Positions 1 to 64,000 of a stretch of DNA of 64,000 nucleotides are shown piece after piece. The notes beneath the pieces are model-generated. The model was not told the DNA's origin, made no database searches, and saw nothing but the letters and a program-made list of their open reading frames with translations. Within the stretch, counting starts at the first letter, position 1. Every line of letters begins with the position of its first letter. This DNA comes from Abditibacterium sp. (lineage in GTDB: Bacteria; Armatimonadota; Abditibacteriia; Abditibacteriales; Abditibacteriaceae), in contig CBDASK010000003.1 of assembly GCA_965199495.1 (NCBI GenBank), positions 1,472,001 through 1,536,000 on the forward strand, given 5' to 3'. Position numbers and translations under genes: made by a program.

Positions 1-1230
1 CGGCTCGGCGGTCAAACCGGTCACTTCGACGTAGCGGAAACCGTGAAAAGTAAAGCGCGGCTCCCACGTCTCTTCGCCGTCGCCGCGCAGCGTGTAATGG
101 TTGGTCTGCTCGGCGGCTTGGCCGCGCAGGTTCGCCGTATAAATCGGGCCGGATGTGGCGAGCGGGCCGTCCGCCAACATTTCGGCGAAGCGAAATTTGA
201 GCGTCTGCCCGGCCTCGCCGCTCACTTTGATATGAATGCGCCCGACCATGTTCTGGCCCATATCGAAAATCACCGACGCGCCGTGGCTGTGCGTGCCAAT
301 CGGCTTGATTTCCTGCGCTTTAACAATCGGCGGCGATAAAGGCGCGCTGATTTCAATATCGGGTTGGGGCGCGACAAGCGCCGCGCGCCAATTGTCGGGC
401 GCAAAACCGGGCGCGCTCCAACCGTCGAACTGCAAACGCGCGTCGAAGTCTTCGCCGATGAGCAAATCGGCGCTTAAAATCGGGCCGTAAGAAAACTGCC
501 AACTGCTATCGCTGGAGATAATCTGGCGTGAACCGTCAGCGAACTCGATTTCGAGTTGGCCGCAAAAGTTCGGTTTGGCGCCATAATTCTGGCGGCGCCG
601 CCAACCGATATGCCCGCAATACCAACCGTCGCCCAACACGGCGCCCAACACGTTTTCGCCTTGTTTTAATAGCGCGGTCACATCGTAGGTTTGATAATCG
701 AGACGCACATGGTAATCCGTCCAGCCGGGCGCCAAAACCTGCGCGCCGACTTTGCGCCCGTTGATTTCGCATTCGTAAACGCCCAGCGCCGTCGCGTAAA
801 GTCGCGCGCGTTTAATCGGTTGCGAAACTTCAAAACCGCGTCGCAAAAACGGCGAGGGCATCGGATTGTGCGGGCCGCCGACCAAATCGCCGCCGATAAA
901 TTGAGCTTGCCAGTCGTCGCGCTCTAAAAGTCCCATTTCCCAGAACGCCTCGTCGCTACGCGTTTTGGCGCCGGTTTCGTCCTCGACTTCGACGCTCCAA
1001 ACAACGCGTTGGCGCGAAGTTAAAGCCGGGCCGTCGTATTCGATTTGCGTGGACTGCGCCGACTCGACGCGACCCGAATCCCAACCGTTATCGGTCGTGA
1101 CGCGATAGGCGACTTGGCGAGCGCCCGCGCGTTCGGTTTGCATTTGCCAGAAAAAACGGGGACGCGTGACACCCAAACCCAGCGGGTTTTCGAGGTATTC
1201 GCAGCGCAGACGATGGATTTGTAGGGACAT
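1..1230 (-). CDS. Alpha-L-rhamnosidase (GH78), N-terminal part; runs off the left edge
   Basis: Not in the ORF track (no stop in the window). Manual translation from ATG at 1230: MSLQIHRLRCEYLENPLGLG..PRFFW..ARLYATALGVYE..LAPGWTDY..LGDGWY..FDMGQNMVG, all typical GH78 motifs. Confidence 0.9.
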   Translation of the reverse strand, partial: MSLQIHRLRCEYLENPLGLGVTRPRFFWQMQTERAGARQVAYRVTTDNGWDSGRVESAQSTQIEYDGPALTSRQRVVWSVEVEDETGAKTRSDEAFWEMGLLERDDWQAQFIGGDLVGGPHNPMPSPFLRRGFEVSQPIKRARLYATALGVYECEINGRKVGAQVLAPGWTDYHVRLDYQTYDVTALLKQGENVLGAVLGDGWYCGHIGWRRRQNYGAKPNFCGQLEIEFADGSRQIISSDSSWQFSYGPILSADLLIGEDFDARLQFDGWSAPGFAPDNWRAALVAPQPDIEISAPLSPPIVKAQEIKPIGTHSHGASVIFDMGQNMVGRIHIKVSGEAGQTLKFRFAEMLADGPLATSGPIYTANLRGQAAEQTNHYTLRGDGEETWEPRFTFHGFRYVEVTGLTAEP

Positions 1231-1358
1231 AAAATGGAGAACGAAAACAATTTTAACCCAACTCAAGCCGCGCGTGGGTCTCTGCTCTATGGCAAGCATA
1301 ATTTTGAACAAGCGCGATGATTTGAATGAATCGAGCAAACTAAATTAAATTCGCTTTT

Positions 1359-2054
1359 ATGCAATTCACCCTTCTTCTTTTCGCCACGCTCAAAGACATT
1401 GCGCCCAACGGTCAATTAACCTTGGAAGTGCCCGACGGCGCGCGCGTGGCTGATGTCTGGGACGCCGCGATTGCACGCGCGCCGCAACTGCAAAAGTGGC
1501 GCAATTACGCGCGCATGGCGGTCAACCAAAGCTACGCGCGCGATGACGAAATCGTGCCCGATGGCGCCGAAATCGCGCTAATTCCACCGGTTTCGGGCGG
1601 CGCGTCGGATAGCGAACCGTTTGTTGCGGTGCGCGAAACCGAGCTTTCCCTTGATGAAGTCGTGCGCGCGGTGCAAAGCGAAATGGGCGGCAGAGCGGGC
1701 GCGATTTGCACGTTTCTGGGCGTTGTGCGCTCGAACTCGACCGATCCCGACGGCAATCAACACGACGACATCGAATACTTGGATTACGAAGCCTACGCGC
1801 CGATGGCCGAAAAAGAGTTGCGCGCGATTTGCCAGCACGTCCGCGAAACGTGGGACGGCGCCTGTGCCATCACGCATCGCACCGGACGCTTAAACGTCGG
1901 TGAAGCGAGCGTAGCGATAGCAGCAGCCACGGCGCACCGGGCCGCGAGTTTCGAGGCGTGTCGTTATGCGATTGAGACGCTGAAAAAGCAGGTGCCAGTC
2001 TGGAAAAAAGAAACGGCGAGCGACGGTTTTTGGTGGGTTGAAAGTGCGGGATGA
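1359..2054 (+). CDS. moaDE: Fused molybdopterin synthase MoaD-MoaE (MoaX-like)
   Basis: N-terminal ubiquitin-like domain ending in IPPVSGG, followed in frame by MoaE motifs (GAICTFLGVVR, LDYEAY, HRTG, PVWKKE). Confidence 0.92.
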   Translation: MQFTLLLFATLKDIAPNGQLTLEVPDGARVADVWDAAIARAPQLQKWRNYARMAVNQSYARDDEIVPDGAEIALIPPVSGGASDSEPFVAVRETELSLDEVVRAVQSEMGGRAGAICTFLGVVRSNSTDPDGNQHDDIEYLDYEAYAPMAEKELRAICQHVRETWDGACAITHRTGRLNVGEASVAIAAATAHRAASFEACRYAIETLKKQVPVWKKETASDGFWWVESAG

Positions 2055-2128
2055 GGGGAAACGCACAAATCAGTTCTTCAAAATCCCAAAACAGGAACCC
2101 GCGACATTTCTCAATCGCCGAATCTATT

Positions 2129-2398
2129 ATGTCTAATTCAAACCAAAATCAGCCGAACGCCAGTGTGCCGCGTTGGGAAACATGGACGATGATCCTTTCG
2201 TTTGTGGCATTGTGGGTGTGGTTCATCGCGCATCAGAGCGCCGGGCGCGCGGGTCAACCACTTTCGTTGTGGTGGCAAATCCCGCTCGTCGTCAGTCTGG
2301 TATTTTTAATCTGGATTTTCGTGCGCCGCACGCGACGCGCGATGGCTGGAATTAAAGCTGTTAGTCCGGCGCGGCGCGGGCGTCCGGGGCAAAATTAA
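2129..2398 (+). CDS. Small membrane protein, two predicted TM helices
   Basis: Hydrophobic stretches and a basic tail; start probably ATG 2129 (track start 2051). Confidence 0.65.
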   Translation: MSNSNQNQPNASVPRWETWTMILSFVALWVWFIAHQSAGRAGQPLSLWWQIPLVVSLVFLIWIFVRRTRRAMAGIKAVSPARRGRPGQN

Positions 2399-2403
2399 AA
2401 ACC

Positions 2404-2438
2404 AAAAGCCGTCGCTCTATTTCGAGCGACGGCTTTTT
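2404..2438. terminator. Bidirectional intrinsic terminator
   Basis: AAAAGCCGTCGCTC-tatttc-GAGCGACGGCTTTTT between convergent genes. Confidence 0.85.
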
Positions 2439-2441
2439 GCA

Positions 2442-2567
2442 TTATTTAGCTTCGGGTTTCCAGCCGCGATCCATGATCACGGTTTTGAGAATTCCGGCGG
2501 CGATCACGACGAAAGCCGAAACGAAAAAATAGAGCCACGAGCGCGTGCTTTTATCCAAATCTTCCAT
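2442..2567 (-). CDS. 41-aa single-TM small protein
   Basis: Below the ORF-track cutoff. MEDLDKSTRSWLYFFVSAFVVIAAGILKTVIMDRGWKPEAK*, with AAGGAAG RBS upstream and a terminator directly downstream. Confidence 0.65.
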   Translation of the reverse strand: MEDLDKSTRSWLYFFVSAFVVIAAGILKTVIMDRGWKPEAK

Positions 2568-2644
2568 GAGTTTGCACTTCCTTAATTAAATTTTTCGGTC
2601 GCTGCATTCAACGCTTCGATGGCAACGGCGCTCACGCGTTGTTC

Positions 2645-3286
2645 TCATAACTCTGTGCGCTTTGTTTGCCAAGGCAATTGGCGCGCCGATGACGTGTCAT
2701 CGGCGAATTTTGGTAACCGCGTTTCTTCGTCGTAAAAGGCGCTTTCGATTTGCTCGCGCCGCAGATGGCGCGCGCCCGATAAATCGGCACCGCGCAAATC
2801 AGCGTTATCCAGATTGGCGCGTTGCAAATTGGTCTGCCACAGCCACGCGCCGCGTAAATTGGCGCCATCCAACAGCGCGCCTTCCAAATCGCAATCGTAG
2901 AGCAGCGCGCCCGCGAAGCGAGCGCCGGGCAAAAACGCGCCGCGCAGCGCAATGCCGTGCAAATCGAGCGGCGCGACTTTTTCCGCGCGCTTCATGCGCC
3001 CCAACACCGCCAGCGCCGCTTGAACATCGCCCGGCACGCGCGTGTGAGCAGCCACGCCGAGTTCCGAACGCGCGCCACCCGCGCGTCGCCGCACGAGGGC
3101 CGCCAGAATTTCGCTGGCACTTTCGCTCGCGTTCGCGTCGCGGCGCACCAACGATTCCAACGCGTAAATGCCCGCCGCACGAGTCGAGATTTCTTCGCTT
3201 TCCAGCAGTTCGAGCGCGCCGCTCAATACGCCGAAATGCGCGCGCGCCCGCGTGCGTTGCGCCAAGGGAGAAAGAGATTGAGACAT
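2645..3286 (-). CDS. Pentapeptide repeat protein
   Basis: RAAGIYALE motif plus A(D/N)LxGA repeats; paralog of 3312-4313. Confidence 0.85.
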   Translation of the reverse strand: MSQSLSPLAQRTRARAHFGVLSGALELLESEEISTRAAGIYALESLVRRDANASESASEILAALVRRRAGGARSELGVAAHTRVPGDVQAALAVLGRMKRAEKVAPLDLHGIALRGAFLPGARFAGALLYDCDLEGALLDGANLRGAWLWQTNLQRANLDNADLRGADLSGARHLRREQIESAFYDEETRLPKFADDTSSARQLPWQTKRTEL

Positions 3287-3311
3287 AATTAATTTGCTGA
3301 TCCGCCAGTTT

Positions 3312-4313
3312 TCAAGCGCGCATTGAAGGCAATTTCAAATTTTCGGCACTGGCGCTGGCGGGCACATCTTTGGGCGCTCCGTTAGACGAATTTTTGGGCG
3401 ATGCGGCACTCACTTTGGCGGCGCTGGCCTGCGCCATAGCGCGCAGGTGCGGCGGAAATTTGGTCGCACCGTCGCATTGCGCGCCCTTCAACTGCGTTGG
3501 TGTCAAGCCAGAAACGCCGGTCAAGTCAGCGCCTTGCAATTGGGCGCCTTCGAGCGTGGCGTCGGTTAAGTCGGCGTTCCACAGGCGAGCGCCGCGCAAG
3601 TTGGCACCTTGCAAAATCGCGCCCTGCAAATTGGTCTGATACAAAAAGGCGCCCGCCAGATTGGCGCCCGGCAAATAAACCCGCGCCAGCGAAATCGCGT
3701 GCAAATCAATGTGGCCCTCGCTCGGATCGAACGCGGCGTGGCGACGCCCGATGACGGTGGCAATCGCCTGCAAATCGGCGGGCAGATGCGCGGCGACGGT
3801 TTCGCCCGCGATCCACGCGGCGTGATCGCGCAGCGTCGCCGCCAAAACTTCCATGATCGGCCCGTGATCGCTTTCCGATTCGCGCGCCAAGCGTTCGAGC
3901 GCGTAAACGCCGCCCAATCGAACTTCCAATTGCGACGAAGCCAAGAGCGCCATCGCCGCCGCGTAACGCTGGGTTTCGCCCGCCTGCGCCGCGAAAAACG
4001 TGGTGCGCTCGGCAGCCGCCAAGGTCAAGGCCGAATTTTCGATAACCGTGCCCAAACCCTGCAAATAACGCCAGACCGTCGTCGCGCCCCAGAAGATGAA
4101 AATGGCTTCGGCCACGCGCGTCAATGAATCGCGGAGGGCGCTTTCGGCCATCAACCGCGCGGCGGGCGCCAGCTTTTCGCCCGCGACCAAAACGTGCGGC
4201 AAAACCCACCACACAAGCAACAACAGCGCACCGCCGCCTATCAGAAAAGCCAGCCCATTTTGAGATTTATTTGGTGCCACGAAATCGGGCCGTTCCGATG
4301 AAGACGAGTTCAT
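3312..4313 (-). CDS. Membrane-anchored pentapeptide repeat protein
   Basis: Two N-terminal TM segments, RLGGVYALERLA motif, ANLxGA repeats. Confidence 0.87.
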   Translation of the reverse strand: MNSSSSERPDFVAPNKSQNGLAFLIGGGALLLLVWWVLPHVLVAGEKLAPAARLMAESALRDSLTRVAEAIFIFWGATTVWRYLQGLGTVIENSALTLAAAERTTFFAAQAGETQRYAAAMALLASSQLEVRLGGVYALERLARESESDHGPIMEVLAATLRDHAAWIAGETVAAHLPADLQAIATVIGRRHAAFDPSEGHIDLHAISLARVYLPGANLAGAFLYQTNLQGAILQGANLRGARLWNADLTDATLEGAQLQGADLTGVSGLTPTQLKGAQCDGATKFPPHLRAMAQASAAKVSAASPKNSSNGAPKDVPASASAENLKLPSMRA

Positions 4314-4370
4314 TGCCCTTACGCCATCAATAAACTGGCCTTTAATCCGATTCTTTTACAAATTTGGAAT

Positions 4371-4790
4371 TTAAGTCCAAGTTTCGGGACGGCATACCAG
4401 AACTTCAATCGAGGTTTGCTCGAACAAACGCGTGACCGTATCGCGCGCGCGGCTCACCACATCTTTGAGGCCGGAATCGGTCGAGAAATTAGAATTCTCG
4501 TCCTCGATCCAATCGGGAATCGGCAGCAAATCGCCCTGAATCGCGCTCAAAACTTCGCCGATAGAAATCTGGTCGGGGCTGCGGCTGAGTTTGTAGCCAC
4601 CGCCCTGCCCTTTCTTGGATTCGAGCAGACCATTGCTCTTCAAATCGAGCAAAACCTGTTCGAGATATTTGCGCGGAATCTCGCAATGCGCCGCGATGTC
4701 GCCGATCTGCGCCCGCTCATCGCGCGCGTGAGAACGAATCAGATAAGCCAACGCTTGAAACGCGTATTTAGTCGTGTTGCCGAGGCGCAT
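4371..4790 (-). CDS. Rrf2 family transcriptional regulator
   Basis: TKYAFQALAYL..IPRKYLEQVLLDLK..LESKKGQGGGYKL; start placed at ATG 4790. Confidence 0.9.
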   Translation of the reverse strand: MRLGNTTKYAFQALAYLIRSHARDERAQIGDIAAHCEIPRKYLEQVLLDLKSNGLLESKKGQGGGYKLSRSPDQISIGEVLSAIQGDLLPIPDWIEDENSNFSTDSGLKDVVSRARDTVTRLFEQTSIEVLVCRPETWT

Positions 4791-5194
4791 AATAAAGGAA
4801 CGAGACTCAAAGTTTATCCGCGCGCTGAGATTCGCCAATTTCAAAGGGCGCGAGCCGGGCATTTGAACGTTGCTAAGACGAATTTTTAAAACATTTCCGA
4901 ATTTCACGCGCGAAACCTTTTTTGCTGTGGCCACAGTTTTTGACTTCACCTCACCGGAGTGATAAGATATTCGCGACTGCTTTCCGCTCACAACTCATAT
5001 CTTCGCGATTTCAATCGCGCTTGTCTTCCTCAATTTTGTCGGTAGGAACGAGGGGCGTGCCTTTAATTTAGGGTGAGATTTGTGTTAAAATATCGCGCCC
5101 ATCAGTCGCGATTCCCGTTGTTTTTTGCGAACGATACAGGGAGTCAGGTTTAGGGGAGAAGGTCTTTCGGGGCCATCAATTTTCAGGATTTTCG

Positions 5195-8092
5195 ATGAGA
5201 ACTCGCTTTTCAAGTCAACCAACCATGCGATCTTTGCACACTGCGCCCACCGTTACTTCCGAATCTGCCTCCGCCGATTTATCCGCGTTGCGTCCCTTTG
5301 GGCGCGCGGGCTTTGGCGCGGCCAAGCGATTGACATTGGCTTTAGCAATGAGCGCGCCGTTTTGTGCGGGCGCATTATTGGCCAATCCAGCTCAGGCGGC
5401 GCCCACGGTCGAGAGCGATGAAAATGGGCCGATTGTTCAAATTCTCAAGCCGGGCTACAACGACATTCTCAAGGGCAACTATCGCATCTTGATTCAGGTC
5501 ACGGCGCGCAAATACAATCCCCAGTCGGTCGAGATGTTCATTGACGACGTATCAGCCACGCCGGGGCCGTTGGAAATTTCGAGTTTCGCTTCGTCGTCCT
5601 ACAACTTCGATACGCGCCTGATGACCGATGGCCGTCACAAATTGACGGTGCGCGTGACCGACTCGCAGGGATTCCGTGGCTGGAGCGAAGTCACGGTTTT
5701 CGTCAACAACAAAGGCATCGTTGACGATCAGGCGCCGCAATTGGACTGGAAAGGGATTGAGCCGTTCAAGGAATATTCCGGCCCGATGAAAATCGAAGTG
5801 GATGCCGCCGATAATTTCGGCGTCAAGATGATCCAGATTTCGATTAATCCGGCGGATTCTCCCAACAAACCGGCCTATTCGTGGATGATGAACCAGCCGC
5901 CGTATCGCGTCAATCTCGATACCATCGGCAAAAATATTCCCGACGGTTTGTATATTTTGAAAGCCAAGGGTTTCGACTCGCTCGACCAACAGGGTGAGGC
6001 CAAACCTCTGACCATTGGCATCCTCAATAACGCCATCAACGCCACGCGCGTCGGCGAGATGTTGGACGGCCAGCGCCAGATGGCCGATCTGCTCAAATCA
6101 GAGAAACCCGCAGAAGTCGCGACCGCCAAATCTGCAACGGCCAAAACTTCGGCGCCCGCCAAAGCCGCAGCAACACCCGACAAAGTGACCGCGACCGCCC
6201 CGGTTGCGGCGCCCGCTCCCGAAGCAGCCACGGCGCGCAGTTCGCAGCCAGCGCCGCAAACGCGCGCGGTGCCGCAGAACGCGCCCACGCTCAATATTCC
6301 GCAGCAAACGGCTTCCAATCCCGGCATCCAACTGCCACGCGTGAACGTGCCCGCCGCTCAAACGCCCGCCGCAACAGAGCCAACGCGCATCGCGGAAACG
6401 CGCATCGCGGAAACGCCCATTGCGGAAACGCCCACCCCGGAAGTAGATTCGACTTTAACCGAAGTCGTCCCGAATATTGCCGTTGATGCTGGAGTTGACG
6501 CCGCGCCCACCGAAGTCGAGGCCGCAACTGACGCATCTGCCAACACAACTGAAACGCCCGCGCCGACAAACCAAACGCAAGCCGCGCCAACCGAAACCTT
6601 ACCCGCGCAGACGAACGTTGCGACGGAGAAAGTTTTGGTCGCCGCTTTGCCGGGCGCGCCGATTGGGCGCCGCAACGCGGGCGAGGCCAGCCTGAGCCGC
6701 GCCGCCGCCGTCAATCTGGCGATGACTGCGTCGTCGCAAGTCGCGACGGTTGCCGCCAGCAACACGCGCTCTATGGCGCCGATTGAAGTCGCGCGTTTCG
6801 GTCAGCCACGCTTGCCCGGTCGCATGGTCAGCGATGCGCCGGTGTGGAGCCAGCACCCGCAGAGCGACGAATCGCGTTTGAGCAACGCCGAACTCGTGCG
6901 CACGCGCGCCAACAAAACGCGAGTTTTGAGCGCGGCCCGCTCGATCAATGCGGGAATCGCGACCGCTCCATCCAGCGCGCGTATGCTGCAAACCAGCGCG
7001 CCCACGCTCAGTGAGCGCCCGATTCTGAGCCGCACCATCAGTCCCGAAACGCTGACCGCGCCCGCGTCCAAATTGACGCGCCAAGTGCAAAAGCAGAGCG
7101 CACCTTTGGCGAAAAATGCGCCCGGAGCGGGCACTTTCTCCAAAGCGGTGCCGGTGACTCAGCGCGCCCTACCCATCGCGCCCCACATGGAAAGATTGGC
7201 GCCCGCCCCGGTGGCTGCTTTCGCCAAGACCAATACGCAGGGAGCGACGGACAAAGCCGCCGAACTCGAAGTTGCGCCCACGTTTATCGCCAAAAACACG
7301 GCGAAACCCGCCGCGCAAGCTCCGCAGATGAGCGCGATGTCCGCGCCGCGCATGAGCGAATCGGCGTCGGGATTGGGCGTGCCGTCCAAGCTCTCCAAAG
7401 CCGTCACCCGTCTGGCGGGCAAACAACAGAGCGCTTCAACACCCGCAGCCACGCGCGTCGAATCGCGCAATGGCGAGCGCATCGCGGCGTTGCCGCGTCC
7501 CGGCGCCGTCAACCGCCAGCAGAGCGGCGGCGCGGCCATCGTCGCCATTCCGCTCAACGAACCGTTACAGGTCGCCGATCCGACGATCATGCCGGTGCCC
7601 GCGACCTATCGCGCCGAGCACACCACGACATTGCGGGCCATCGCGGCGCGCTTTGGTTTGCCGGTCGAGTTGGTCGCGATTTCCAACGGTTGGACGAGCG
7701 AAATGAAAGTGACGCGCGGCATGGAAGTCAAACTGCCGCGTCCGCTCGATATTTCGTATAACGGCGTGCCGGTCAAAGGCGACGCGCCTTCGATGCTGGC
7801 GGGCGATACCGCCGTCACGGCGTTTCGCTTTATGTTCGAGAAATCCGGCGGCAAACTGCGCTGGGACGCCACCAACCAGCGCGTCATCGCGACCAAAGAT
7901 GGCCGCGAAATCGTGTTGACCATCGGCTCCGATGTCGCCAAAGTCGGCGACCGCGAAGTCATGATGGAAATCGCCGCGTTCCTGTTTCAAGGCCGCGCGA
8001 TGGTGCCGTTGCGGTTCTTCGAGGAAGGTCTCAACGCGCAGGTCGAATGGAATCCGCAGACGGGCCGTTTGGTCGTCGCGATGGCGGGCTGA
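5195..8092 (+). CDS. Large exported cell-surface protein (Ig-like domains, low-complexity linker, LysM, copper amine oxidase N-terminal-like domain)
   Basis: Signal-like AQA motif; DGRHKLTVRVTD and DGLYILKAKGFD Ig-like segments; TLRAIAARFG LysM; GRAMVPLRFFEEGLNAQVEW domain. Confidence 0.75.
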   Translation: MRTRFSSQPTMRSLHTAPTVTSESASADLSALRPFGRAGFGAAKRLTLALAMSAPFCAGALLANPAQAAPTVESDENGPIVQILKPGYNDILKGNYRILIQVTARKYNPQSVEMFIDDVSATPGPLEISSFASSSYNFDTRLMTDGRHKLTVRVTDSQGFRGWSEVTVFVNNKGIVDDQAPQLDWKGIEPFKEYSGPMKIEVDAADNFGVKMIQISINPADSPNKPAYSWMMNQPPYRVNLDTIGKNIPDGLYILKAKGFDSLDQQGEAKPLTIGILNNAINATRVGEMLDGQRQMADLLKSEKPAEVATAKSATAKTSAPAKAAATPDKVTATAPVAAPAPEAATARSSQPAPQTRAVPQNAPTLNIPQQTASNPGIQLPRVNVPAAQTPAATEPTRIAETRIAETPIAETPTPEVDSTLTEVVPNIAVDAGVDAAPTEVEAATDASANTTETPAPTNQTQAAPTETLPAQTNVATEKVLVAALPGAPIGRRNAGEASLSRAAAVNLAMTASSQVATVAASNTRSMAPIEVARFGQPRLPGRMVSDAPVWSQHPQSDESRLSNAELVRTRANKTRVLSAARSINAGIATAPSSARMLQTSAPTLSERPILSRTISPETLTAPASKLTRQVQKQSAPLAKNAPGAGTFSKAVPVTQRALPIAPHMERLAPAPVAAFAKTNTQGATDKAAELEVAPTFIAKNTAKPAAQAPQMSAMSAPRMSESASGLGVPSKLSKAVTRLAGKQQSASTPAATRVESRNGERIAALPRPGAVNRQQSGGAAIVAIPLNEPLQVADPTIMPVPATYRAEHTTTLRAIAARFGLPVELVAISNGWTSEMKVTRGMEVKLPRPLDISYNGVPVKGDAPSMLAGDTAVTAFRFMFEKSGGKLRWDATNQRVIATKDGREIVLTIGSDVAKVGDREVMMEIAAFLFQGRAMVPLRFFEEGLNAQVEWNPQTGRLVVAMAG
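6382..6433 (+). repeat. In-frame 15-bp tandem repeat, about 3.5 copies (TRIAE/TPIAE)
   Basis: aacgcgcatcgcgga x2 followed by aacgcccattgcgga aacgccc. Confidence 0.8.
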
Positions 8093-8102
8093 GGAGCAAG
8101 AA

Positions 8103-8240: not shown

Positions 8241-8241
8241 T

Positions 8242-54428: not shown

Positions 54429-54503
54429 GGTTTTATTGGGAGAAGTCGGAAGTTAGAAACTTTAAAGCGCTGTTTGGGCCTTTCATTTCTAACTTTTAAC
54501 TCC

Positions 54504-55145: not shown

Positions 55146-55176
55146 AACTTTGGAAATTTAAAAGTTGCCAGTTACT

Positions 55177-55319: not shown

Positions 55320-55335
55320 GTATTAAATTAACTCC

Positions 55336-56355: not shown

Positions 56356-56394
56356 GAGACAAATAGGTTAGCGGATTTCAAATTTCGGATGTCA

Positions 56395-56582
56395 GATTTC
56401 GGATTTGGCGCGCTGTGTCATTTGGAGTGAGGCACGAACCGAGAAATCTTGTGGCCCCGCGCCAGCGGAAATTACGCGATTCCTTCGACGTGAATCACTC
56501 GCAAAATTGCGCTGCCGCGCGGGCGAAAGATTTCTCGGTTCGTGCCTCACTCCAAATGACACAGCGCGCCAAATCCGAAATC
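56395..56582. repeat. GTCAT..ATGAC palindromic element, copy 4, with GATTTCR heptamer flanks
   Basis: gatttcggatttggcgcgctgtgtcatttggagtgaggcacgaaccgagaaatctt and its reverse complement. Confidence 0.88.
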
Positions 56583-56586
56583 GCTT

Positions 56587-57132
56587 TCACTTCACCAGTT
56601 CGAGCATCGCGCGAAAATCTGGGGTTCCGGCTTCGCCCAACAATTCGTAAATCGCCGCCTCGGTCGAAGTCGCCACGGCGCCCGCGCGCATCATGCGCTC
56701 CCAGCCGACGCGACGATTGTCTTCGCGCCGCGACGAAATCGCATCGTAAGCCGTAAAGACGGTGAAATCGTGGTCAATCAAATCGAGCGCGGTTTGCGCC
56801 ACGCAAATATGCGCTTCGATACCGCACAATAAAACGTTCTGACGCCCGCAATTTTCGATGTTCTCGCGCGCGTCGGGCCACGCCGAAAACCGCATTTTTT
56901 CGACCGCTTCAAATTCGCCCAGCGCGCGTTTTATTGCGTCGGCAGTGCCGCCGATTTTCGCCGTGTTTTGCTGCGAAACCACGACCGGCATTTCCAAACG
57001 CCGCGCGAGGGTCGCCAGCATGGCGATGTTGCGTTCCAATCGCTGCGCCTCGAAAATTTCGGGCAGCAGACGCGTTTGCACGTCGCAGATGAAAAGCAGC
57101 GCGTTGTCGCGCGTTAGTCGAGGCTGGGGCAT
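56587..57132 (-). CDS. Isochorismatase family hydrolase
   Basis: ICDVQ, KMRFS, GIEAHICVAQT; start ATG 57132. Confidence 0.88.
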   Translation of the reverse strand: MPQPRLTRDNALLFICDVQTRLLPEIFEAQRLERNIAMLATLARRLEMPVVVSQQNTAKIGGTADAIKRALGEFEAVEKMRFSAWPDARENIENCGRQNVLLCGIEAHICVAQTALDLIDHDFTVFTAYDAISSRREDNRRVGWERMMRAGAVATSTEAAIYELLGEAGTPDFRAMLELVK

Positions 57133-57270
57133 CAGGAGAGAAAGGATATTAAAGACGAACGATAAAAAGTAGTTTTCCCTTGCCAGTATGTAACTTCTGC
57201 GGCATTGCGTTTGCGTCGCTATTTGCGCCGAAATGGGGCGCAAACGCGCCGTTCATATCGGTAAAATATC

Positions 57271-58173
57271 ATGTCGAACACCAAAAATCAATACGCAATG
57301 CAAAATCCCGTGACGCAATATCCCTCTCCGCCGTTTCCCAAACAGCCGCAAAACGCGCCCGGTCTGGCCCAGAAAATGGAGCCGCAACCCGATCACGGCG
57401 AAGAATCTTATCAGGGTTTCGGCAGATTGGCCGGACGTAAGGCGCTGATTACCGGCGGCGATTCGGGCATCGGGCGCGCTGCCGCCATCGCGATGGCGCG
57501 CGAGGGCGCCGATGTCGCCATCGGTTATTTGCCTTCCGAAGAAGCCGACGCCAAACAAGTCATCGAATGGATCGAAAAAGCGGGCCGCCGCGCCGTTGCT
57601 TTGCCGGGCGACATCAAGGACGAAGCGTTCTGCCAAAAATTAGTCGCCGATGCCGTTGAACAATTGGGCGGATTGGATATTTTGGTCAACAACGCGGGCA
57701 AGCAAACTTCGGCTTCGTCGCTCGAAGAGATCACCACCGAACAGTTCGACGCGACCTTTAAAACCAACGTTTACGCGATGTTTTGGATTACCAAAGCCGC
57801 TTTACCGCATCTTCCGGCGGGCGCGAGCATCATCAATACGGCTTCGATTCAGGCGTTCGACAGTTCCAAGAACTTGCTCGATTACGCGCAGACCAAATCG
57901 AGCATCGTGGCGTTTACGCACGCGCTGGCGAAGAATATCGCCGAAAAAGGCATTCGCGTCAACGCCGTGGCTCCCGGCCCGGTCTGGACGCCATTGCAAT
58001 CGAGCGGCGGCCAGCCGCAGGATTCCATCGAGAAATTCGGCGCCAAAACGCCGATGGGTCGCCCCGGCCAACCCGCCGAATTCGGCCCGGTCTACGTGTT
58101 TTTGGCCTCGCAGGAAGCCAGCTACGTCACCGGCGAAGTTTATGGCGTGACCGGCGGCGAAGGTTTGATGTAA
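57271..58173 (+). CDS. SDR oxidoreductase (YghA/YhxD-like)
   Basis: [31 protein letters not shown]. Confidence 0.93.
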
Positions 58174-58191
58174 ATCGTCAAGACGACGTTA

Positions 58192-58235
58192 AAACAATCG
58201 CGCGCGCCGGGAACTCTCGGCGCGCGCGGTTGTTT
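58192..58235 (+). terminator. Hairpin terminator
   Basis: AAACAATCGCGCGCGCCG..CGGCGCGCGCGGTTGTTT. Confidence 0.6.
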
Positions 58236-58246
58236 ATGCACACAGC

Positions 58247-58957
58247 ATGAAAAACCTGAAATCTCCATTATTCTTTGGCGCCGTCATCGTCGGCGCTTCC
58301 GTCGCGCTCTTTGCAGCCAGCGCCGTGAATCGTCCCACCGTCGCCGATGCCGCCACGGCGAGCGCGCAGACCGAAGACATCGCCAAAAAACCGGCGCCCG
58401 TGATCCTGGCCAAACCCGGCCAAAGCACCGCGACTTTCGCCGGTGGCTGCTTTTGGAGCATGGACGCGATTTTCAATCAAGTCAAAGGCGTTGACAGCGC
58501 GCAACCCGGTTATGCGGGCGGCAATTCCAAAAACCCGACCTACGAAGGCGTCGCGCAGGGCGACACCGGTTATGCCGAAACCATCAACGTGATTTACGAT
58601 CCGAAAGTGATTTCGTATAAAGATTTGGTGGATATTTTTCTCACCGTGCATAATCCGACGCAACTGAATTATCAGGGCAACGACACGGGCACGCAATACC
58701 GCAGCGAGATTTTCTATCGCAGCCCAGAGCAAAAGCAAATCGCCGAAACTGCCATCGCGAAACCGGCCTCGGCTTACGGCTGGAAAGAAACGAGCAAAAT
58801 CGTGACGCAACTCGCACCCTACGACAAGTTTTATCGCGCCGAGACTTATCATCTCAACTACTACAACCAACATCCCAACGAAGGCTACTGCTCCGCCGTC
58901 GTCGGGCCGGAAATCGAGCATTTCAAAGAGAAATTTGGCGACCGTTTGAAAAAGTAA
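58247..58957 (+). CDS. msrA: Exported peptide methionine sulfoxide reductase A
   Basis: Signal peptide; FAGGCFW, GTQYRS, AETYH, GYC. Confidence 0.93.
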   Translation: MKNLKSPLFFGAVIVGASVALFAASAVNRPTVADAATASAQTEDIAKKPAPVILAKPGQSTATFAGGCFWSMDAIFNQVKGVDSAQPGYAGGNSKNPTYEGVAQGDTGYAETINVIYDPKVISYKDLVDIFLTVHNPTQLNYQGNDTGTQYRSEIFYRSPEQKQIAETAIAKPASAYGWKETSKIVTQLAPYDKFYRAETYHLNYYNQHPNEGYCSAVVGPEIEHFKEKFGDRLKK

Positions 58958-58971
58958 GCTGGGCCGAAATG

Positions 58972-59008
58972 AAACCGCCGCGTTCGTAAATGAACACGGC
59001 GGTTTTTT
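58972..59008. terminator. Bidirectional intrinsic terminator
   Basis: AAACCGCCGCGTTC..GAACACGGCGGTTTTTT. Confidence 0.78.
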
Positions 59009-59011
59009 GTG

Positions 59012-59356
59012 TCAGTCCAAACCGTCCGATTCTGGCGCGCGGGCGCCCACAATAAACCAAATCAACATTCCAGCCCCACTACCAGCCACGGCGCCGGTGA
59101 ACAATGCCAAAAACAGGGAAACGATCGCCATAAATGGATTGTCAATATCATCGGTTGCGCTGAGCATCATCCAAAGCAGAGCAAGCGCGCCAAAGCCGCC
59201 CAACGCGCCGCCGCCGAAAAACAAAAGCACGCCGCCAAACCAGCCGACGATCCATTTAGGCGGCGGTTTAAGAGGCTTGCGCCGCTTTTTTGGCGCCGAG
59301 TTGCCAGTGAACTCGATGCGATGTTTCGGCGATTCCGATGGCAAGTTTGAAGACAT
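59012..59356 (-). CDS. Hypothetical Gly-rich membrane protein
   Basis: Two hydrophobic Gly-rich helices. Confidence 0.6.
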   Translation of the reverse strand: MSSNLPSESPKHRIEFTGNSAPKKRRKPLKPPPKWIVGWFGGVLLFFGGGALGGFGALALLWMMLSATDDIDNPFMAIVSLFLALFTGAVAGSGAGMLIWFIVGARAPESDGLD

Positions 59357-59367
59357 AGAAATTGGTT

Positions 59368-59694
59368 TCAACCCGGCAAATAACTCGCGCAACGCGCTTT
59401 GAGAAGTTCGACCAAATCGTCATCCATATATTCGTAATCGTCGGGAATATCCAAAACCGCGACGCGTTTTCCGGCGAGTTCCCGTTTGATCCTGCGATTC
59501 AAACGCGTTTTATGCGCGCTTTCCATTACCAAAATCAAGTCGGCCCATTCGATTTGTTCGCTGCACAATGGAACTTCCGCATCGTTGTTGAGGCCCGCTG
59601 AATCGGTTGCGACGCCTTCATAATCGGCAAACAAATCCGCCGCTGTTGGGCTGCGCAGTTTGTTTTGCGAACAGAGAAAAAGAATATGTTTCAT
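59368..59694 (-). CDS. Low-molecular-weight protein tyrosine phosphatase-like protein
   Basis: LFLCSQNKLRSPTA (CX5R), EWADLILVME, LDIPDDY. Confidence 0.9.
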   Translation of the reverse strand: MKHILFLCSQNKLRSPTAADLFADYEGVATDSAGLNNDAEVPLCSEQIEWADLILVMESAHKTRLNRRIKRELAGKRVAVLDIPDDYEYMDDDLVELLKARCASYLPG

Positions 59695-60060
59695 CGGGAA
59701 TTACGATTGTCTTCCATTTTTCGCCGCCAAACTTCGCCAACAACTTCATCCAAAGCCTTGACCTGCGCTTCCGATGTCGAAGTTTGAGACACGATTTGAA
59801 ACCCGCTGTTGATGCCCGTCGGCCCATGAATGACGCGCACGAATCCGCCACGAGAACTGTGTCCATGCTCGACAACAATATCGGAGACAACGCAAAACTC
59901 GCGCTGAATTTCGGCTAACAATCGCTCTTTGACTTTGCCGACCGATTCGAGCGCCGTAGGCCGCGCGCCGCTCGATGCCAGAGATGGCGTGACCAACGAT
60001 AACCAACGGGCCTTCTTCGTCATAATCTACGCGGATTTGAAAATCTTCGGGACGAATCAT
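59691..60060 (-). pseudogene. Probably one frameshifted gene encoding two similar small domains
   Basis: Start of track ORF 59746-60060 joins the end of ORF 59691-60023 across a CG run at about 59961-59970. Confidence 0.55.
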
Positions 60061-60264
60061 GGACGAAAGTTTACCGGCGATGACCCAACCAGAACGCGAC
60101 TTATCGCACGCCGCTCACTGCGTTGGGGATAACTTATTCGCTTGCGGGCATAAATCGAGTGAAAGCGCGCGTTGGAGCGAATCGCGTTGTTTTCAATGGA
60201 AATTAAACCGCAGAAACAGTTGCCGTTTCGAGTGGCAGAAGTTAGAATGTTTGGGGTTGCTCAT

Positions 60265-60312
60265 TCGCTACATTTTGTGGCACACCCAGACGCGCGGCAC
60301 AAGATGTTGCGC
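60265..60312 (+). promoter_or_regulatory. Tandem NrdR boxes
   Basis: TCGCTACATTTTGTGG (60265) and GCACAAGATGTTGCGC (60297) resemble acaCwAtATaTwGtg, start-to-start spacing 32 bp, directly upstream of the RNR gene. Confidence 0.75.
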
Positions 60313-60332
60313 TTTTCGCTTTTTTTAACCTC

Positions 60333-63300
60333 ATGGATAACACCACTCCCCTCGCCCCCGAAATTGCCGCTCCACAAAACGGCGCGCCCGCAATGGCGAC
60401 GCACCTCACGCCGCCGACCAGCGTGACCAACGGACACACTTCACCCATCGGCGCCGCTTACGGCGATGGAGCCACGCCGACTGACCTCAACGCATCGGTG
60501 ACCGGCAAAAGCGACGGCAAAGGCGGTTGGACGCCCGGCTTTCGCGCCAAGACTTCGCCCGAACGCGCGCTCAAATGGGAGCGCCATTTCACCGAACCGG
60601 GCCAAGACCCATTCGAGACGCTCGACTGGGAAATGCGCACGGCGGGCATTACGGGCGAAGACGGCAAATCGGTCTTTGAACAAACCGATTGCGAAATTCC
60701 CAAACCGTGGTCACAACTCGCCACCAACGTCGTGGTCAGCAAATATTTTCGCGGCCCGATCAATTCGCCCCAGCGCGAACATTCGGTCAAACAGGTGATT
60801 GGCCGCGTGGCGGATACCATCGGTTTGTGGGGCGCGCAGGGCGGCTATTTCGCCAGCGACGAAGACGCCGAAAACTTCCGCGATGAACTGGCTTATTTGC
60901 TCGTTCATCAATACGGCGCGTTCAACTCGCCGGTCTGGTTCAATCTGGGCGTGAAAGACGCGAAACAACAATGCAGCGCGTGTTTTATCAACGATGTTTA
61001 CGACGATATGGAAAGCATCATGGAACTGGCGGCGACAGAAGCGCGCCTGTTCAAAGGCGGAAGCGGTGCGGGCGTCAATTTGTGGCGCATCCGTTCGAGC
61101 AAAGAGCAGTTGCGCGGCGGCGGCATCGCCAGCGGCCCGATCTCGTTTATGCGCGGCTGGGATTCGTTCGCGGGCGCGGTGAAATGTCTGACGCCCGATG
61201 CGCAGATTTATACCGACCAGGGTTTGCGCACGGTCGGCGAGCTGATCGATCCGAATTTGGAGCCGGGTTTTCACGCCGATGATTCGGTTGTTTTGGCGAC
61301 CAAAGATGGCCCGACGCGCATCAGTCAGGTTTACGTCAGTCCCCTCGCGCCGACGCGCGAAATGGAGTTGGGACACACCGGTTTGCGTCTGCGCGGCACT
61401 CATCAGCATCCGGTTTTGACGCTGACGCCGCAATTTGAATTGGAGTGGAAAGCGCTTTCGCAGATCAACGTCGGCGACCGCGTGGCTGTGGCGCGCGGCC
61501 AGGAAATGTGGCCCGAAAACGCGCCGACATTCGACTTCGCGCCGCAAACGACATGGGCAAAACTCGACTTGACTTATCCGACGCAGATGACGCCCGAACT
61601 GGCGCGTTTGTTGGGTTACATGACTTCCGAAGGCTGCATGGATGCGCAGCGTTTCCGCTTTTGTAACGCCGATAAGGACGTGTTCGCCGACTTCTTGCGT
61701 TGCGTCGAAGCCGTCTTTGGGCACGACGGGAGCGGTAACGTCAGCGAACGAATCAACGAAAAAACCGGTGTCACGACGCAGATGTTCGAGGCGTGCTGGA
61801 CCAACGCCGTGCGCTTTTTGCAAGTCGCCGGACTGGGCTTTGAAAAGTCGGACGAAAAGCGCGTGCCGCGCTCGATCCTGAGTTCGCCGCGCGAATTGGT
61901 CGTCGAATTTTTGCGCGCCTACTTCGAGGGCGACGGTCACGTTTCGACGTATGTTTACGCATCCAGCGCCTCGCGCGCGCTCTTGGGTGATGTTCAATTG
62001 CTGCTCTTGAACATGGGAATGTTGCCCTTGTTGCGGCGCCATCCCGTCAACGGCAAAGATTACTGGAATTTGTGTTTGCGCGGCGAAGCGGCGTTTCGGT
62101 TCGTGCGCGAAGTCGGCTTTATTTCGGCGCGCAAACAGGCGGCGTCCGATGTCGCGGGCGACAAAAATACCAACATCGACACGCTGCCATTTTTGGTGGA
62201 CGTGTTGCGCCAATACACTTCCAAAAACAAGTATTTCCATTGCTCCGATGGCCAAACGCGCGAGTTGGGTTTTGGCTTTTTCAATCGCAAAGCGGGCAGC
62301 GCGATTTCGTATAATCGTCTGCGTAACACGCCCGCGCTTTTGGATCATTTGGAACAGGTCAATCCGCAACTCGCCGAAACCTTGGAGTGGTTGATGGAAC
62401 GCGAGTTTTTCTGGGACACCGTTAAGTCGGTCGAAGCAGCCACGCCCGCCGTGACCTACGATTTTACCGTGCCGCAAACGCATTCGTTCGTGGCCAACGG
62501 CATCGTCAACCACAATTCGGGAGGAACGACGCGTCGCGCAGCGAAGATGGTAATCCTCAACGCCGACCATCCTGATATCGGCGAGTTCATCACCTGCAAA
62601 GCCGACGAAGAAAAGAAAGCCTGGGCGCTCATCGAGGCGGGTTATAACGGCGGCTTCAACGTGCCGGGCGGCGCCTACGATTCGGTCGCGTTTCAGAACG
62701 CCAACCACAGCGTGCGCGTGACCGACGAGTTCATGCGCGCTGCCGAAAACGATACCAATTGGCAACTGCGCGCCGTCACCACGGGCGCCGTCGTCGAAAC
62801 CAAAAAGGCGCGCCAGATGCTCAAGGACATCGCTCAGACGACGTGGATTTGCGGCGATCCGGGGATGCAATTCGACACCCTTATCAACGAGTGGCACACC
62901 TGCTCCAATTCGGATCGGATTTACGCGAGCAACCCGTGCAGCGAGTTCATGTTCCTCAACTCAACGGCATGTAATTTAGCCTCGTTGAACTTGTTGAAGT
63001 TTTACAACATGGAAACCGGCGAGTTCGACGCGGCGGGTTATGCGCGCGCGTGCGAAGTCTTTATTACCGCGCAGGAAATTATCGTTTCGTTCGCATCGTA
63101 TCCAACGCAAAAAATCGGCGAGATGAGCGAGCAATATCGTCCGCTTGGTCTGGGTTATGCCAACCTCGGCGCTTTGCTGATGGCCAAAGGTTTGGCCTAC
63201 GACAGCGACGAAGGCCGCGCTTTAGCGGGCGCTTTGACAGCGATTATGACGGGCGCGGCCTATCGTAAATCGGCGCAAATCGCGCGCAACACCGGGCCGT

Positions 63301-64000
63301 TTGAGGGCTACGTCCAGAACAAAGAACCAATGCTGCGCGTCATCGCCAAACACCGCGATGCGGTGAATCGCATTGACACAACGCTCGTCGCCGAAAACGT
63401 GATGCAGGAAGCGCGCAACGCGTGGGACGATGCGTATATGACGGGGCAAAAGTATGGCTATCGCAATTCGCAGGCGACAGTTTTGGCGCCGACCGGCACT
63501 ATATCTTTCATGATGGATTGCGATACGACTGGCGTCGAGCCGGACATCGCACTCGTCAAATACAAGAAGTTGGTCGGCGGCGGTTTGCTCAAAATCGTCA
63601 ATCAGACGGTTCCGGCGGCGTTGCGCAACTTGGGATATAACGAAAGCGAGATCAAATCCATCGTGGATTACATCGACAAAAACGATACCATCGAAGGTGC
63701 GCCCGGCTTGCTCGATGAGCATTTGTCGGTCTTCGATTGCGCGTTCAAGGCGATGAACGGCACCCGTTCGATTCATCACATGGGCCACATCAAGATGATG
63801 GCGGCGACGCAACCGTTTATTAGCGGCGCGATTTCCAAGTGCGTGACGGGCGAAACGTTGGTAGCCACGGCGGGCGGCATCGTGCCGATTGGCAGCTTTT
63901 ATCGAGGCGAAAAGCCGGGCGAATTCACGCCGGTCGCGGCCAAACTCGCTTCGATCGGCGCGCCGCAAGACGCCGACTTGTTCTATTACGGCGGCAATCG
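60333..64000 (+). CDS. nrdJ: Class II (adenosylcobalamin-dependent) ribonucleotide reductase with two inteins; runs off the right edge
   Basis: Not in the ORF track (no stop). Manual translation: WSQLATNVVVSKYF, FNSPVWFN, CSACFI, SGGTTRRAAKM, ASNPCSE, ACNLASLN, LAPTGTIS, SGAISK. Confidence 0.95.
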   Translation, partial: MDNTTPLAPEIAAPQNGAPAMATHLTPPTSVTNGHTSPIGAAYGDGATPTDLNASVTGKSDGKGGWTPGFRAKTSPERALKWERHFTEPGQDPFETLDWEMRTAGITGEDGKSVFEQTDCEIPKPWSQLATNVVVSKYFRGPINSPQREHSVKQVIGRVADTIGLWGAQGGYFASDEDAENFRDELAYLLVHQYGAFNSPVWFNLGVKDAKQQCSACFINDVYDDMESIMELAATEARLFKGGSGAGVNLWRIRSSKEQLRGGGIASGPISFMRGWDSFAGAVKCLTPDAQIYTDQGLRTVGELIDPNLEPGFHADDSVVLATKDGPTRISQVYVSPLAPTREMELGHTGLRLRGTHQHPVLTLTPQFELEWKALSQINVGDRVAVARGQEMWPENAPTFDFAPQTTWAKLDLTYPTQMTPELARLLGYMTSEGCMDAQRFRFCNADKDVFADFLRCVEAVFGHDGSGNVSERINEKTGVTTQMFEACWTNAVRFLQVAGLGFEKSDEKRVPRSILSSPRELVVEFLRAYFEGDGHVSTYVYASSASRALLGDVQLLLLNMGMLPLLRRHPVNGKDYWNLCLRGEAAFRFVREVGFISARKQAASDVAGDKNTNIDTLPFLVDVLRQYTSKNKYFHCSDGQTRELGFGFFNRKAGSAISYNRLRNTPALLDHLEQVNPQLAETLEWLMEREFFWDTVKSVEAATPAVTYDFTVPQTHSFVANGIVNHNSGGTTRRAAKMVILNADHPDIGEFITCKADEEKKAWALIEAGYNGGFNVPGGAYDSVAFQNANHSVRVTDEFMRAAENDTNWQLRAVTTGAVVETKKARQMLKDIAQTTWICGDPGMQFDTLINEWHTCSNSDRIYASNPCSEFMFLNSTACNLASLNLLKFYNMETGEFDAAGYARACEVFITAQEIIVSFASYPTQKIGEMSEQYRPLGLGYANLGALLMAKGLAYDSDEGRALAGALTAIMTGAAYRKSAQIARNTGPFEGYVQNKEPMLRVIAKHRDAVNRIDTTLVAENVMQEARNAWDDAYMTGQKYGYRNSQATVLAPTGTISFMMDCDTTGVEPDIALVKYKKLVGGGLLKIVNQTVPAALRNLGYNESEIKSIVDYIDKNDTIEGAPGLLDEHLSVFDCAFKAMNGTRSIHHMGHIKMMAATQPFISGAISKCVTGETLVATAGGIVPIGSFYRGEKPGEFTPVAAKLASIGAPQDADLFYYGGN
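61185..62516 (+). mobile_element. Intein 1 in nrdJ (444 aa) with LAGLIDADG homing endonuclease
   Basis: ..AGAVK|CLTPDAQIYT ... HSFVANGIVNHN|SGGTTRR; LLGYMTSEG and FLRAYFEGDG blocks; in frame. Confidence 0.93.
63840..64000 (+). mobile_element. Intein 2 in nrdJ (N-terminal part only)
   Basis: ..SGAISK|CVTGETLVATAGGIVPI is intein block A where TVN would normally follow. Confidence 0.85.

Follow-up and report, generated by a model that had tools for sequence, protein, structure and literature searches.

The question raised by the DNA considered here is why a short, non-palindromic word, AGCCACG, recurs in it about once per kb on both strands. The stretch (hereafter the window; 64,000 nucleotides) covers positions 1,472,001-1,536,000 of C3, the 4.72-Mb chromosome contig of an Abditibacterium genome that is 95% complete and is designated G000, and its gene content is that of ordinary housekeeping DNA. 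The genus assignment follows the source names, Abditibacterium sp. and Abditibacteriota, of proteins in the cluster to which ClpP of the window belongs; the 16S gene appears to agree with it. Exact counting gives 66 copies in the window, 38 as AGCCACG and 28 as CGTGGCT; a preliminary description of this DNA had arrived at about 65 (38 and 27), and all 26 coordinates quoted there are found in the exact list. Dinucleotide shuffling of the window (n=100) yields a mean of 8.15 copies and a largest value of 19, with 0/100 shuffles reaching 66. The word is a property of the whole chromosome and not of the window alone: C3 carries 4,533 copies (2,256 and 2,277 by strand; 0.96 per kb), and the 4,553 copies of the whole genome amount to 5.2-7.2 times the expectations of Markov models of orders 0-3, which upholds the excess over composition claimed earlier. 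Two small contigs of G000 have densities of 0.32 and 0.19 per kb (8 copies in 25 kb and 12 in 65 kb). The AGCCACG word is real and, as far as the literature was searched, undescribed; no report of it, and none of the strand-wise spacing of known uptake sequences dealt with below, was found in this search, outside which most subscription papers and supplements lie. The main new observation, missed in the preliminary description, is the strand-by-strand spacing of the copies. We tentatively read the word, in the form AGCCACG(N)CG, as a putative self-DNA mark like the uptake sequences of Pasteurellaceae and Neisseriaceae, which would be spread by an oriented and saturating drive.

Spacing of the word on the two strands

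Each strand of the chromosome is tiled separately, in that same-strand copies avoid each other to about 1.3 kb and opposite-strand copies do not. Same-strand pairs of the 7-mer stand at 0.41 of expectation at 40-200 bp, 0.50 at 200-500 bp, 0.77 at 500-1,000 bp and 0.94 at 1,000-1,600 bp, whereas opposite-strand pairs show no depletion (0.90-1.07); taken together, the pairs at 40-500 bp are 462 on the same strand vs 930 on opposite strands (p 1e-36). For the 11-base extended form, CAGCCACGNCG, the same-strand ratio is 0.0-0.3 below 400 bp. Orientation is shared by 1,733 of the 4,532 pairs of adjacent copies, against 2,265 +/- 33 in 1,000 label shuffles, an alternation that is not visible in the window alone (30/65 neighbours the same). 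The strength of the sites follows the same rule: strong sites make up 30/152 of those lying 40-300 bp from a strong same-strand site, compared with 691/1,208 of those at 2.5-5 kb, and distance to opposite-strand sites has no effect on site strength. Further, in a 198-kb sample of G011 (with G004, one of two word-bearing relatives; other G numbers denote further genomes of the order or family) the same-strand pairs at 500-1,000 bp number 20 vs 37 expected and the opposite-strand pairs 36 vs 37. A general avoidance of close direct repeats was rejected as an explanation, since close same-strand pairs of other frequent 9- and 11-mers are too many rather than too few. At offsets 11, 12 and 14 (convergent) and 15 and 16 (divergent), close inverted pairs of the word exceed expectation, mostly within genes; hairpin or repetitive extragenic palindromic (REP) structure around the G000 sites was also rejected, no complementary covariation being seen on any diagonal (3,503 sites). 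The analysis shows that the word is brought to fixation and retained on both strands by an oriented, saturating force, which reaches over about 1 kb.

As a control, the same counts were made for the uptake signal sequence (USS) of Pasteurellaceae, in 41 non-overlapping loci picked from 80, every one centred on a USS, of which 38 were kept (>=0.4 USS per kb; 722 kb, 596 sites). USS pairs at 40-500 bp number 47 on the same strand vs 90 on opposite strands (p 0.0003), and 37 vs 77 with close pairs masked (loci L260-L338), this same-strand gap being gone beyond 500 bp. One proven uptake sequence therefore shares the signature. Even spacing of USS on each strand was reportedly described by Karlin et al. 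1996.

There is no polarity of the AGCCACG word with respect to replication. When the replichores are split with dnaA at 2.028 Mb, 2,236 of the 4,533 copies (49.3%) are on the leading strand, and any placement of the origin gives at most 51.4% either way. On the same replichores a word resembling the FtsK-orienting polar sequences (KOPS), GGGCAGGG, served as a positive control, with 201 leading vs 24 lagging copies; the GC skew of G000 is very weak.

Excess, reading frames and origin of the copies

Under a maximal-order model the top 6-mer of G000 is AGCCAC and the top 7-mers are CAGCCAC and AGCCACG. The consensus is (g)cAGCCACG[G/C/T]CG, with a near-invariant AGCCAC core followed by G and, two bases on, by C. 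The 11-mer CAGCCACGNCG is seen 2,179 times vs 23 expected; single changes within AGCCAC bring this enrichment to 0.3-3.4-fold and those at the next G to 3-5-fold, with graded effects at the outer positions. The A-rich left flank proposed earlier is not borne out, as just position -3 is raised (A 0.44-0.47) and the 10 upstream bases are at background A (0.23). A search of Rfam gave no family matching the word.

The word is not a coding artefact. Among 3,588 chromosomal genes called with a hexamer model (by which short and atypical genes are missed), 4,084 coding copies of the 7-mer compare with 728 after synonymous-codon shuffling (5 shuffles; 5.6-fold) and 1,978 of the 11-mer with 58 (34-fold), both above the 2-fold level that the preliminary description had named as the lower limit for codon-preserving shuffles. 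Short intergenic DNA has 215 copies vs 37 expected (5.8-fold). The frame independence claimed earlier was overstated: all six frames are used, and each exceeds the synonymous shuffle (1.6- to 11.9-fold), but 2,994 of the 4,084 coding copies (73%) are in two frames, Val-Ala and Ala-Ala-Thr, with the same bias within the window (44/56 coding copies). The tripeptides Ala-Ala-Thr, Val-Ala-Ala and Ser-His-x are raised 1.3- to 1.6-fold. The word does use uncommon alanine codons, as had been noted before; outside it GCT and GCA make up 8.9% and 5.4% of Ala codons, and 12% of all GCT codons sit inside it. The copies in the window, and those of particular kinds among them, are as follows.

1925..63869, + strand: AGCCACG, 38 copies, starting at 1925, 2533, 2841, 3050, 5554, 6226, 6804, 7447, 9087, 9585, 10846, 13149, 15222, 16321, 17830, 19301, 20864, 24307, 27233, 28373, 31165, 33235, 41574, 43860, 44825, 45742, 47618, 48457, 49673, 51148, 51777, 52218, 54300, 54802, 59084, 60470, 62438 and 63863
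282..61487, - strand: 28 copies, CGTGGCT on the + strand, starting at 282, 1445, 5675, 9417, 9881, 10992, 12741, 15275, 17594, 21201, 24989, 29548, 30553, 34695, 35842, 36055, 36276, 37686, 40707, 42379, 43851, 45150, 47492, 48770, 50351, 55738, 57966 and 61481
43851..43866, no strand given: back-to-back inverted pair (CGTGGCT, 2 bases, AGCCACG) in a DUF389 gene, of the close inverted-pair class that is in excess genome-wide
33231..33244, + strand: full-consensus copy GCAGCCACGGCG, read as Ala-Ala-Thr-Ala (the commonest sense frame) near the end of a 1,523-aa gene
9585..9591, + strand: intergenic copy directly after an aspartokinase gene
28373..28379, + strand: copy outside called genes, with a cobalamin riboswitch on one side and a prepilin-like gene on the other
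37686..37692, - strand: intergenic copy between trigger factor and clpP

The intergenic status given earlier to the last three agrees with the present gene calls. The cobalamin riboswitch lies upstream of two prepilin-like DUF1559 genes (window 26584-28658, - strand), and the chromosome has about 40 prepilin-like frames of this kind. Other features of the window are RNase P protein and YidD domains in one 261-aa frame (44535-45320, + strand), ahead of yidC and jag and about 0.5 Mb from dnaA; a sortase-domain protein (13643-14320, - strand), in a bacterium having secretins; a ThiS/MoaD-MoaE fusion (1359-2054, + strand); a short Hsp70 with GrpE (22999-25519, - strand); and a 1,500-aa protein bearing a SpoIVB-type peptidase domain (28841-33424, + strand).

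The word is restricted to one clade. It is at least 20-fold over its reversed control in 3/28 genomes of the order and in 3/251 of a sample of the phylum, the next ratios being about 5, and the three genomes (G000, G011 and G004) form one branch with support of 100 in a quick ComEC tree (29 rows), with a five-genome sister clade lacking the word. Relatives of like GC are also without it. Orthologous positions, at which the preliminary description had proposed that relatives be compared, were followed in 93 orthologues from the 198-kb sample of G011, in 122 of G004, and in 189 alignments from seven relatives without the word. G011 keeps 89 of 127 sites, compared with controls of 0.31 (peptide-matched) and 0.39 (frame-matched). 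In the seven relatives without the word, 188/199 word sites align ungapped, the 11 further sites being in gapped columns, and 3/188 have the word; amino-acid identity at the word sites is 0.51 vs 0.63 expected. The word is shown by these alignments to arise by point change at tolerant codons and not by insertion. This pattern of origin and retention matches that described for known uptake sequences in the consulted parts of PMC2817400 and PMC7811141.

Regions judged by eye to be mobile are poorer in the word, with 0.2-0.5 per kb in the prophage, islands and small contigs vs about 1.0 in core DNA; the prophage has 38 copies in 73 kb and the islands 8 in 26 kb and 35 in 89 kb, compared with 105 in 100 kb of a core sample. 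The recombinase-bearing defence islands at C3:1.165-1.254 Mb end beside a comM-like gene, and the prophage at C3:4.217-4.290 Mb has queuosine-pathway-like and methylase genes (all by eye). A single 16S gene was found in G000 (C3:1,860,971-1,862,487, L001); it is followed by protein genes and the rRNA genes therefore appear unlinked. It carries one copy of the word, in what we take to be a widely conserved stretch.

Search for a reader and other words in the family

A convincing association with the word was found for no pilin, residue or methyltransferase. G000 encodes ComEC, ComEA, DprA, PilB/T/C/D, four minor pilins and secretins, and by eye or motif also ComM, ComF, RecA and RadA; relatives lacking a word have these genes too. 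Neither the gene content of the pilus locus nor its net charge differs between genomes with and without the word. When 10 competence and pilus proteins were compared for group-specific residues, a pilin column proved to be a gap artefact and was rejected, and one transmembrane position of ComEC is Val in 10/10 word-bearing and 0/17 other genomes. Because 10 proteins were compared and 4.5% of clade-structured relabellings separate the groups equally well, this column is a lead only. At L008 and other ComEC loci the nuclease domain has a degenerate metal motif, both in the G000 clade and in the sister clade.

As regards methylation, G000 has MmeI-, ISP- and Eco57I-type proteins. Seven G011 and seven G004 matches to the Eco57I family include none that corresponds to a G000 protein at orthologue level (best 73%, to two different proteins, where orthologues have medians of 91% and 80%). 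In G000 the region of the chromosomal C5 methyltransferase has low GC and no copy of the word, beta-class methyltransferases (not aligned) are in 28/28 genomes, and no methyltransferase was seen to track with the clade, PF02384 and PF00145 matches being compared by place and size only and G011 being 87% complete. MutL and, by eye, MutS are present in G000; the methyltransferase beside mutS has low GC and is paired with a gene resembling that of a restriction enzyme (by eye). As regards recombination, RecB/AddA was not found in the 95% complete G000, which has one UvrD-family protein, and RecC is in 0/28 genomes of the order; a PD-(D/E)XK helicase at C3:4.11 Mb was rejected as AddA, being of AAA_11/12 type, and G000 appears from motif matches only to rely on RecF/RecO/RecR/RecJ. 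The lack of replichore polarity and the failure to find the Chi enzymes therefore make Chi and KOPS unlikely, and a recombination signal of this type, to which strict polarity would have pointed in the preliminary description, is not borne out.

In G004 the word prefers ACC before the core and TCC after it, and it is also carried by intergenic inverted doublets, 32 in 240 kb with 19 at one spacing (L032-L041). These have 23-base arms containing the word and GTAG, mostly one fixed spacing, and an A/T centre, and they resemble the uptake sequences that lie in terminators. The density of coding copies in G004 is about half that in G000, with a reduced number within 2 kb of a doublet (19/65 vs 27.9 expected, p 0.016); with both kinds of copies counted the total density is therefore similar (0.84 per kb). 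Matches of the G004 long form on viral contigs number 25, all single, and none of these contigs is clearly word-rich. Outside the window, the G000 chromosome has a REP-like hairpin repeat with GTAG, whose 226 matches lie for the most part between genes and in inverted pairs spaced by about 97 bp, as well as another repeat with 81 matches of AGGGGGAGA; G000 also has eight matches to Y1 transposases.

Two other genera of the family carry words of a different kind. AGTACT has 2,813-4,733 copies in six of their genomes vs 1-285 in the rest of the family, where it is strongly avoided, and the palindromes centred on it occur about once per kb with genus-specific flanks (L084-L089, L098-L111, L124-L131).

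TCGAGTACTCGA: AGTACT-centred word of G020, G024 and G026
CGAGTACTCG: AGTACT-centred word of G022
GCAAGTACTTGC: AGTACT-centred word of G014
CAAAGTACTTTG: AGTACT-centred word of G018

In G020, 48/53 coding AGTACT sites align ungapped, in the manner of highly iterated palindromes (HIP); in G014 the arms covary in part. G017 has 1,318 copies of a 22-base palindrome (22-24 bases) that is open in all frames (L096, L097, L112-L123), and this looks more like a repeat element, being mostly outside conserved coding DNA (7/93) and having arms that covary. Single copies of it are present in five other family genomes (including L502:500-521 and L503) and several on a 58-kb viral contig with an integrase (L497-L501); the single copies in G022 and G016 have no common flanking gene (2/6 such places inspected). 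Due to the non-coding, covarying 22-mer of G017 and the partly covarying arms of G014, the proposal of a single system, with the words of the family as its dialects, was rejected. Samples of 13-80 kb from 17 other genomes contain no comparable dispersed word. Extreme avoidance of palindromes is common to much of the family; in G000 CGGCCG, CTCGAG, TTCGAA and CCGCGG are at 0.01-0.02 of expectation, CTAG at 0.04 and GTAC at 0.11.

Interpretation and comparison with known systems

We infer that the force acting on the word is biased DNA replacement, in which natural transformation would be the most likely agent, although this can be put forward only tentatively; mismatch repair is an unlikely agent and a tracking protein an improbable one. 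If the word is a self-DNA mark, an asymmetric protein on the route of natural transformation (type IV pilus, ComEA, ComEC, DprA) would read only one orientation of it, as the protein moves along double-stranded DNA or else on the strand that enters the cell in single-stranded form. DNA near a copy would then be taken up and recombined more often, and biased replacement would drive new copies to fixation until there is about one per 2 kb per strand, beyond which a further same-strand copy would add little. A lineage-specific uptake sequence, one of the possibilities named in the preliminary description, fits all the genomic tests, including the comparison of spacing with USS, but is a candidate for which no receptor was found.

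Several observations weigh against this self-DNA mark and should be set beside it. Competence genes do not follow the distribution of the word, ComEC being present in 28/28 and ComEA in 26/28 genomes of the order; a syntenic pilus locus is found in 20/20 fetched genomes, with and without the word alike. The receptor check proposed earlier succeeded to the extent that ComEA and pilins were found, but there was no match to the ComP family (ComP_DUS) in 6 pilin-locus or pilin proteins (the genome-wide search being positive in no control either), and no pilin convincingly tracks with the word. The one strongly basic pilin, at C3:2,782,760, was rejected as the receptor, as it has close matches in G010, G012 and G002, which are without the word, and none in G004 at E 1e-25. 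The Neisseria-type control for the DNA uptake sequence (DUS), viz. 20 DUS-rich metagenome loci with 364 sites, is weak, with 14 same-strand vs 26 opposite-strand pairs at 40-200 bp (p 0.08) and nothing further out, and the exclusion range of about 1.3 kb is longer than the roughly 0.5 kb of USS and near the 1 kb reach of mismatch repair. The density of the word in G000 is 1.05 per kb in coding vs 0.54 in non-coding DNA, the reverse of DUS and USS; convergent-gene regions show hardly any excess (0.67 vs 0.48-0.55); and no enrichment is seen in eight genes of repair and competence (18 copies in 14 kb, p 0.22). Even in the prophage the count is 2.7-fold that expected of it (38 vs 14 copies). G004 keeps 26/147 sites, compared with a control of 0.20-0.27, so that sites are not conserved at that distance; retention at control level therefore indicates turnover of sites. 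Finally, in the consulted parts of PMC1939737 and PMC7811141 neither orientation nor a second close site has an effect on uptake. The standard model of uptake therefore does not explain the strand-wise spacing, even though this is seen in USS.

The chief rival, which we regard as a lesser possibility, is a one-strand repair mark, i.e. a HIP-type ratchet with a non-palindromic site. AGCCAC(G), modified or bound on one strand only, would mark for mismatch or heteroduplex repair the strand to be retained over about 1 kb; mutations creating a site would protect themselves, and sites would accumulate to full coverage of each strand. The targets of MmeI and of bacteriophage exclusion (BREX) systems are similar to a six-base asymmetric site having A in fifth place, and G000 has MutS and MutL together with proteins of MmeI, ISP and Eco57I types; MutL being present, a ratchet of the HIP1 type that saturates at about 1 kb therefore remains the chief rival. 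Relatives also carry HIP-like palindromes centred on GTAC. Under the Elhai model, as given in the consulted part of PMC4390886, sites should saturate when there is about one per 1,000 nt and the core site of an enzyme should extend into its flanks; this saturation matches the exclusion range and the strand-wise tiling. However, the Eco57I-family matches of G000, G011 and G004 include no shared orthologue, the C5 methyltransferase region lacks the word and is low in GC, and the beta-class methyltransferases occur in all 28 genomes. Further, USS needs no methylation yet shows the same strand pattern. HIP1, which is still poorly explained, has been linked to transformation (PMC13756078, consulted in part), and the uptake and repair-ratchet readings may therefore not be exclusive.

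It is rather improbable that the word is a loading or stop site for a protein that tracks along DNA in one direction (a helicase, end-processing nuclease, primase or chromosome-organising protein) and needs it on both strands, e.g. after two-ended breaks. Orientation-specific saturation is to be expected of a directional tracker, and the weakening of sites near a strong same-strand site (30/152 vs 691/1,208), with no effect of the other strand, is consistent with it, as are the 38 copies vs 14 expected in the prophage and the apparent use of RecF/RecO/RecR/RecJ (motifs). However, no candidate protein was found, RecB/AddA and RecC (0/28) included; a primase or fork-linked site would be expected to show a leading/lagging bias, which is not seen; and an essential chromosome function fits badly with the absence of the word from the five-genome sister clade. 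An origin of the word in a mobile REP-like repeat, read by its transposase or a domesticated derivative, is quite improbable. The doublets of G004 (32 in 240 kb, 23-base arms including GTAG, 19 with the same spacing) suggest it, and Y1 transposases occur in G000, G004 and G011 and other GTAG repeats in G000. However, 4,084 of the 4,533 copies in G000 are coding, made by substitution and without hairpin covariation; near-copies of the G004 arms number just 7 in G000 and are absent from 198 kb of G011; the transposases of G000 are not flanked by any pattern of copies; and the doublets may equally have captured a word already having drive. That the word, which is non-palindromic, 7-11 bases long, genome-wide and dominated by two frames, is a classical Chi, a KOPS or a codon or composition artefact is very improbable and already largely refuted by its 49.3% leading-strand share (<=51.4% at any origin), the Chi enzymes not found, the 5.6- to 34-fold excess over codon shuffles and 5.8-fold intergenic excess, and its absence from like-GC relatives.

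Returning to the self-DNA mark, every mechanism has to account for the strand-wise spacing, which is a simple signature in the genome; as this spacing is also seen in USS, where the usual model of uptake does not predict it, the old question of how uptake sequences are limited and spaced becomes testable on existing data. Further, a young, clade-restricted word with sister species lacking it allows a direct comparison of gain and loss to find the reader protein. A broader proposal, which is doubtful, is that Abditibacteriaceae have a sequence-programmable recognition of self DNA that has been switched on at least 3 times (AGCCACG in one clade, AGTACT palindromes in two genera), whose reader would act one strand at a time by the same logic that underlies USS. 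If true, programmable self-recognition would give uptake sequences and HIP-type palindromes a common mechanism, in a group belonging neither to Proteobacteria nor to Cyanobacteria, and close relatives without any word would be natural controls.

Among known systems, Chi (read by RecBCD/AddAB) and KOPS (read by FtsK) are short, asymmetric and read in one orientation. The word shares shortness and asymmetry with them, but it lacks the replichore polarity expected of Chi, KOPS and AIMS, and G000 has the separate KOPS-like GGGCAGGG. REP and REPIN elements are intergenic hairpins copied as units beside a Y1 transposase; the G000 word is unlike them, whereas the G004 doublets are partly like them. 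HIP1 and the alternate HIPs (PMC4390886, PMC5861425 and PMC13756078, each consulted in part) resemble the word in occurring about once per kb, in genes, conserved, without strand bias and with sporadic replacement among relatives, and the six family genomes with AGTACT-centred palindromes at about 1 per kb are HIP-like; however, AGCCACG is not a palindrome, and neither arm covariation nor, with families other than Eco57I compared by place and size only, a cognate methyltransferase was found for it. Sequence-specific uptake is documented, within the consulted parts of the papers cited here, for Pasteurellaceae and Neisseriaceae only. AGCCACG differs from the USS and DUS cores quoted in PMC2817400 and from the dialects in 10.1101/2025.10.24.684340 (both consulted in part), in keeping with the earlier claim that it matches no known uptake sequence, and by sequence it is not a member of either family, nor was a receptor of the ComP family found among the pilins scanned. 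DUS (Neisseriaceae, GCCGTCTGAA, receptor ComP) is like this word in being clade-restricted, with a variant form in the relative G004 and inverted intergenic pairs there. It is unlike the G000 word in that 163/364 DUS of the control loci are in close pairs vs a few percent in G000, strand-wise spacing is weak in the DUS loci, and no ComP-family pilin was found among the 6 proteins scanned in G000. Compared with USS (Pasteurellaceae, core AAGTGCGGT; PMC2817400, PMC7811141 and PMC3458573, in the parts consulted), the G000 word is of unrelated sequence and another phylum, lacks AT tracts, is about 90% coding with few terminator-type pairs, and has a longer exclusion range. However, both are non-palindromic, occur about once per kb on both strands, originate by point mutation at tolerant codons with a frame bias, and are rare in gained DNA, and in both, as computed here, the copies are spaced with respect to others on the same strand only.

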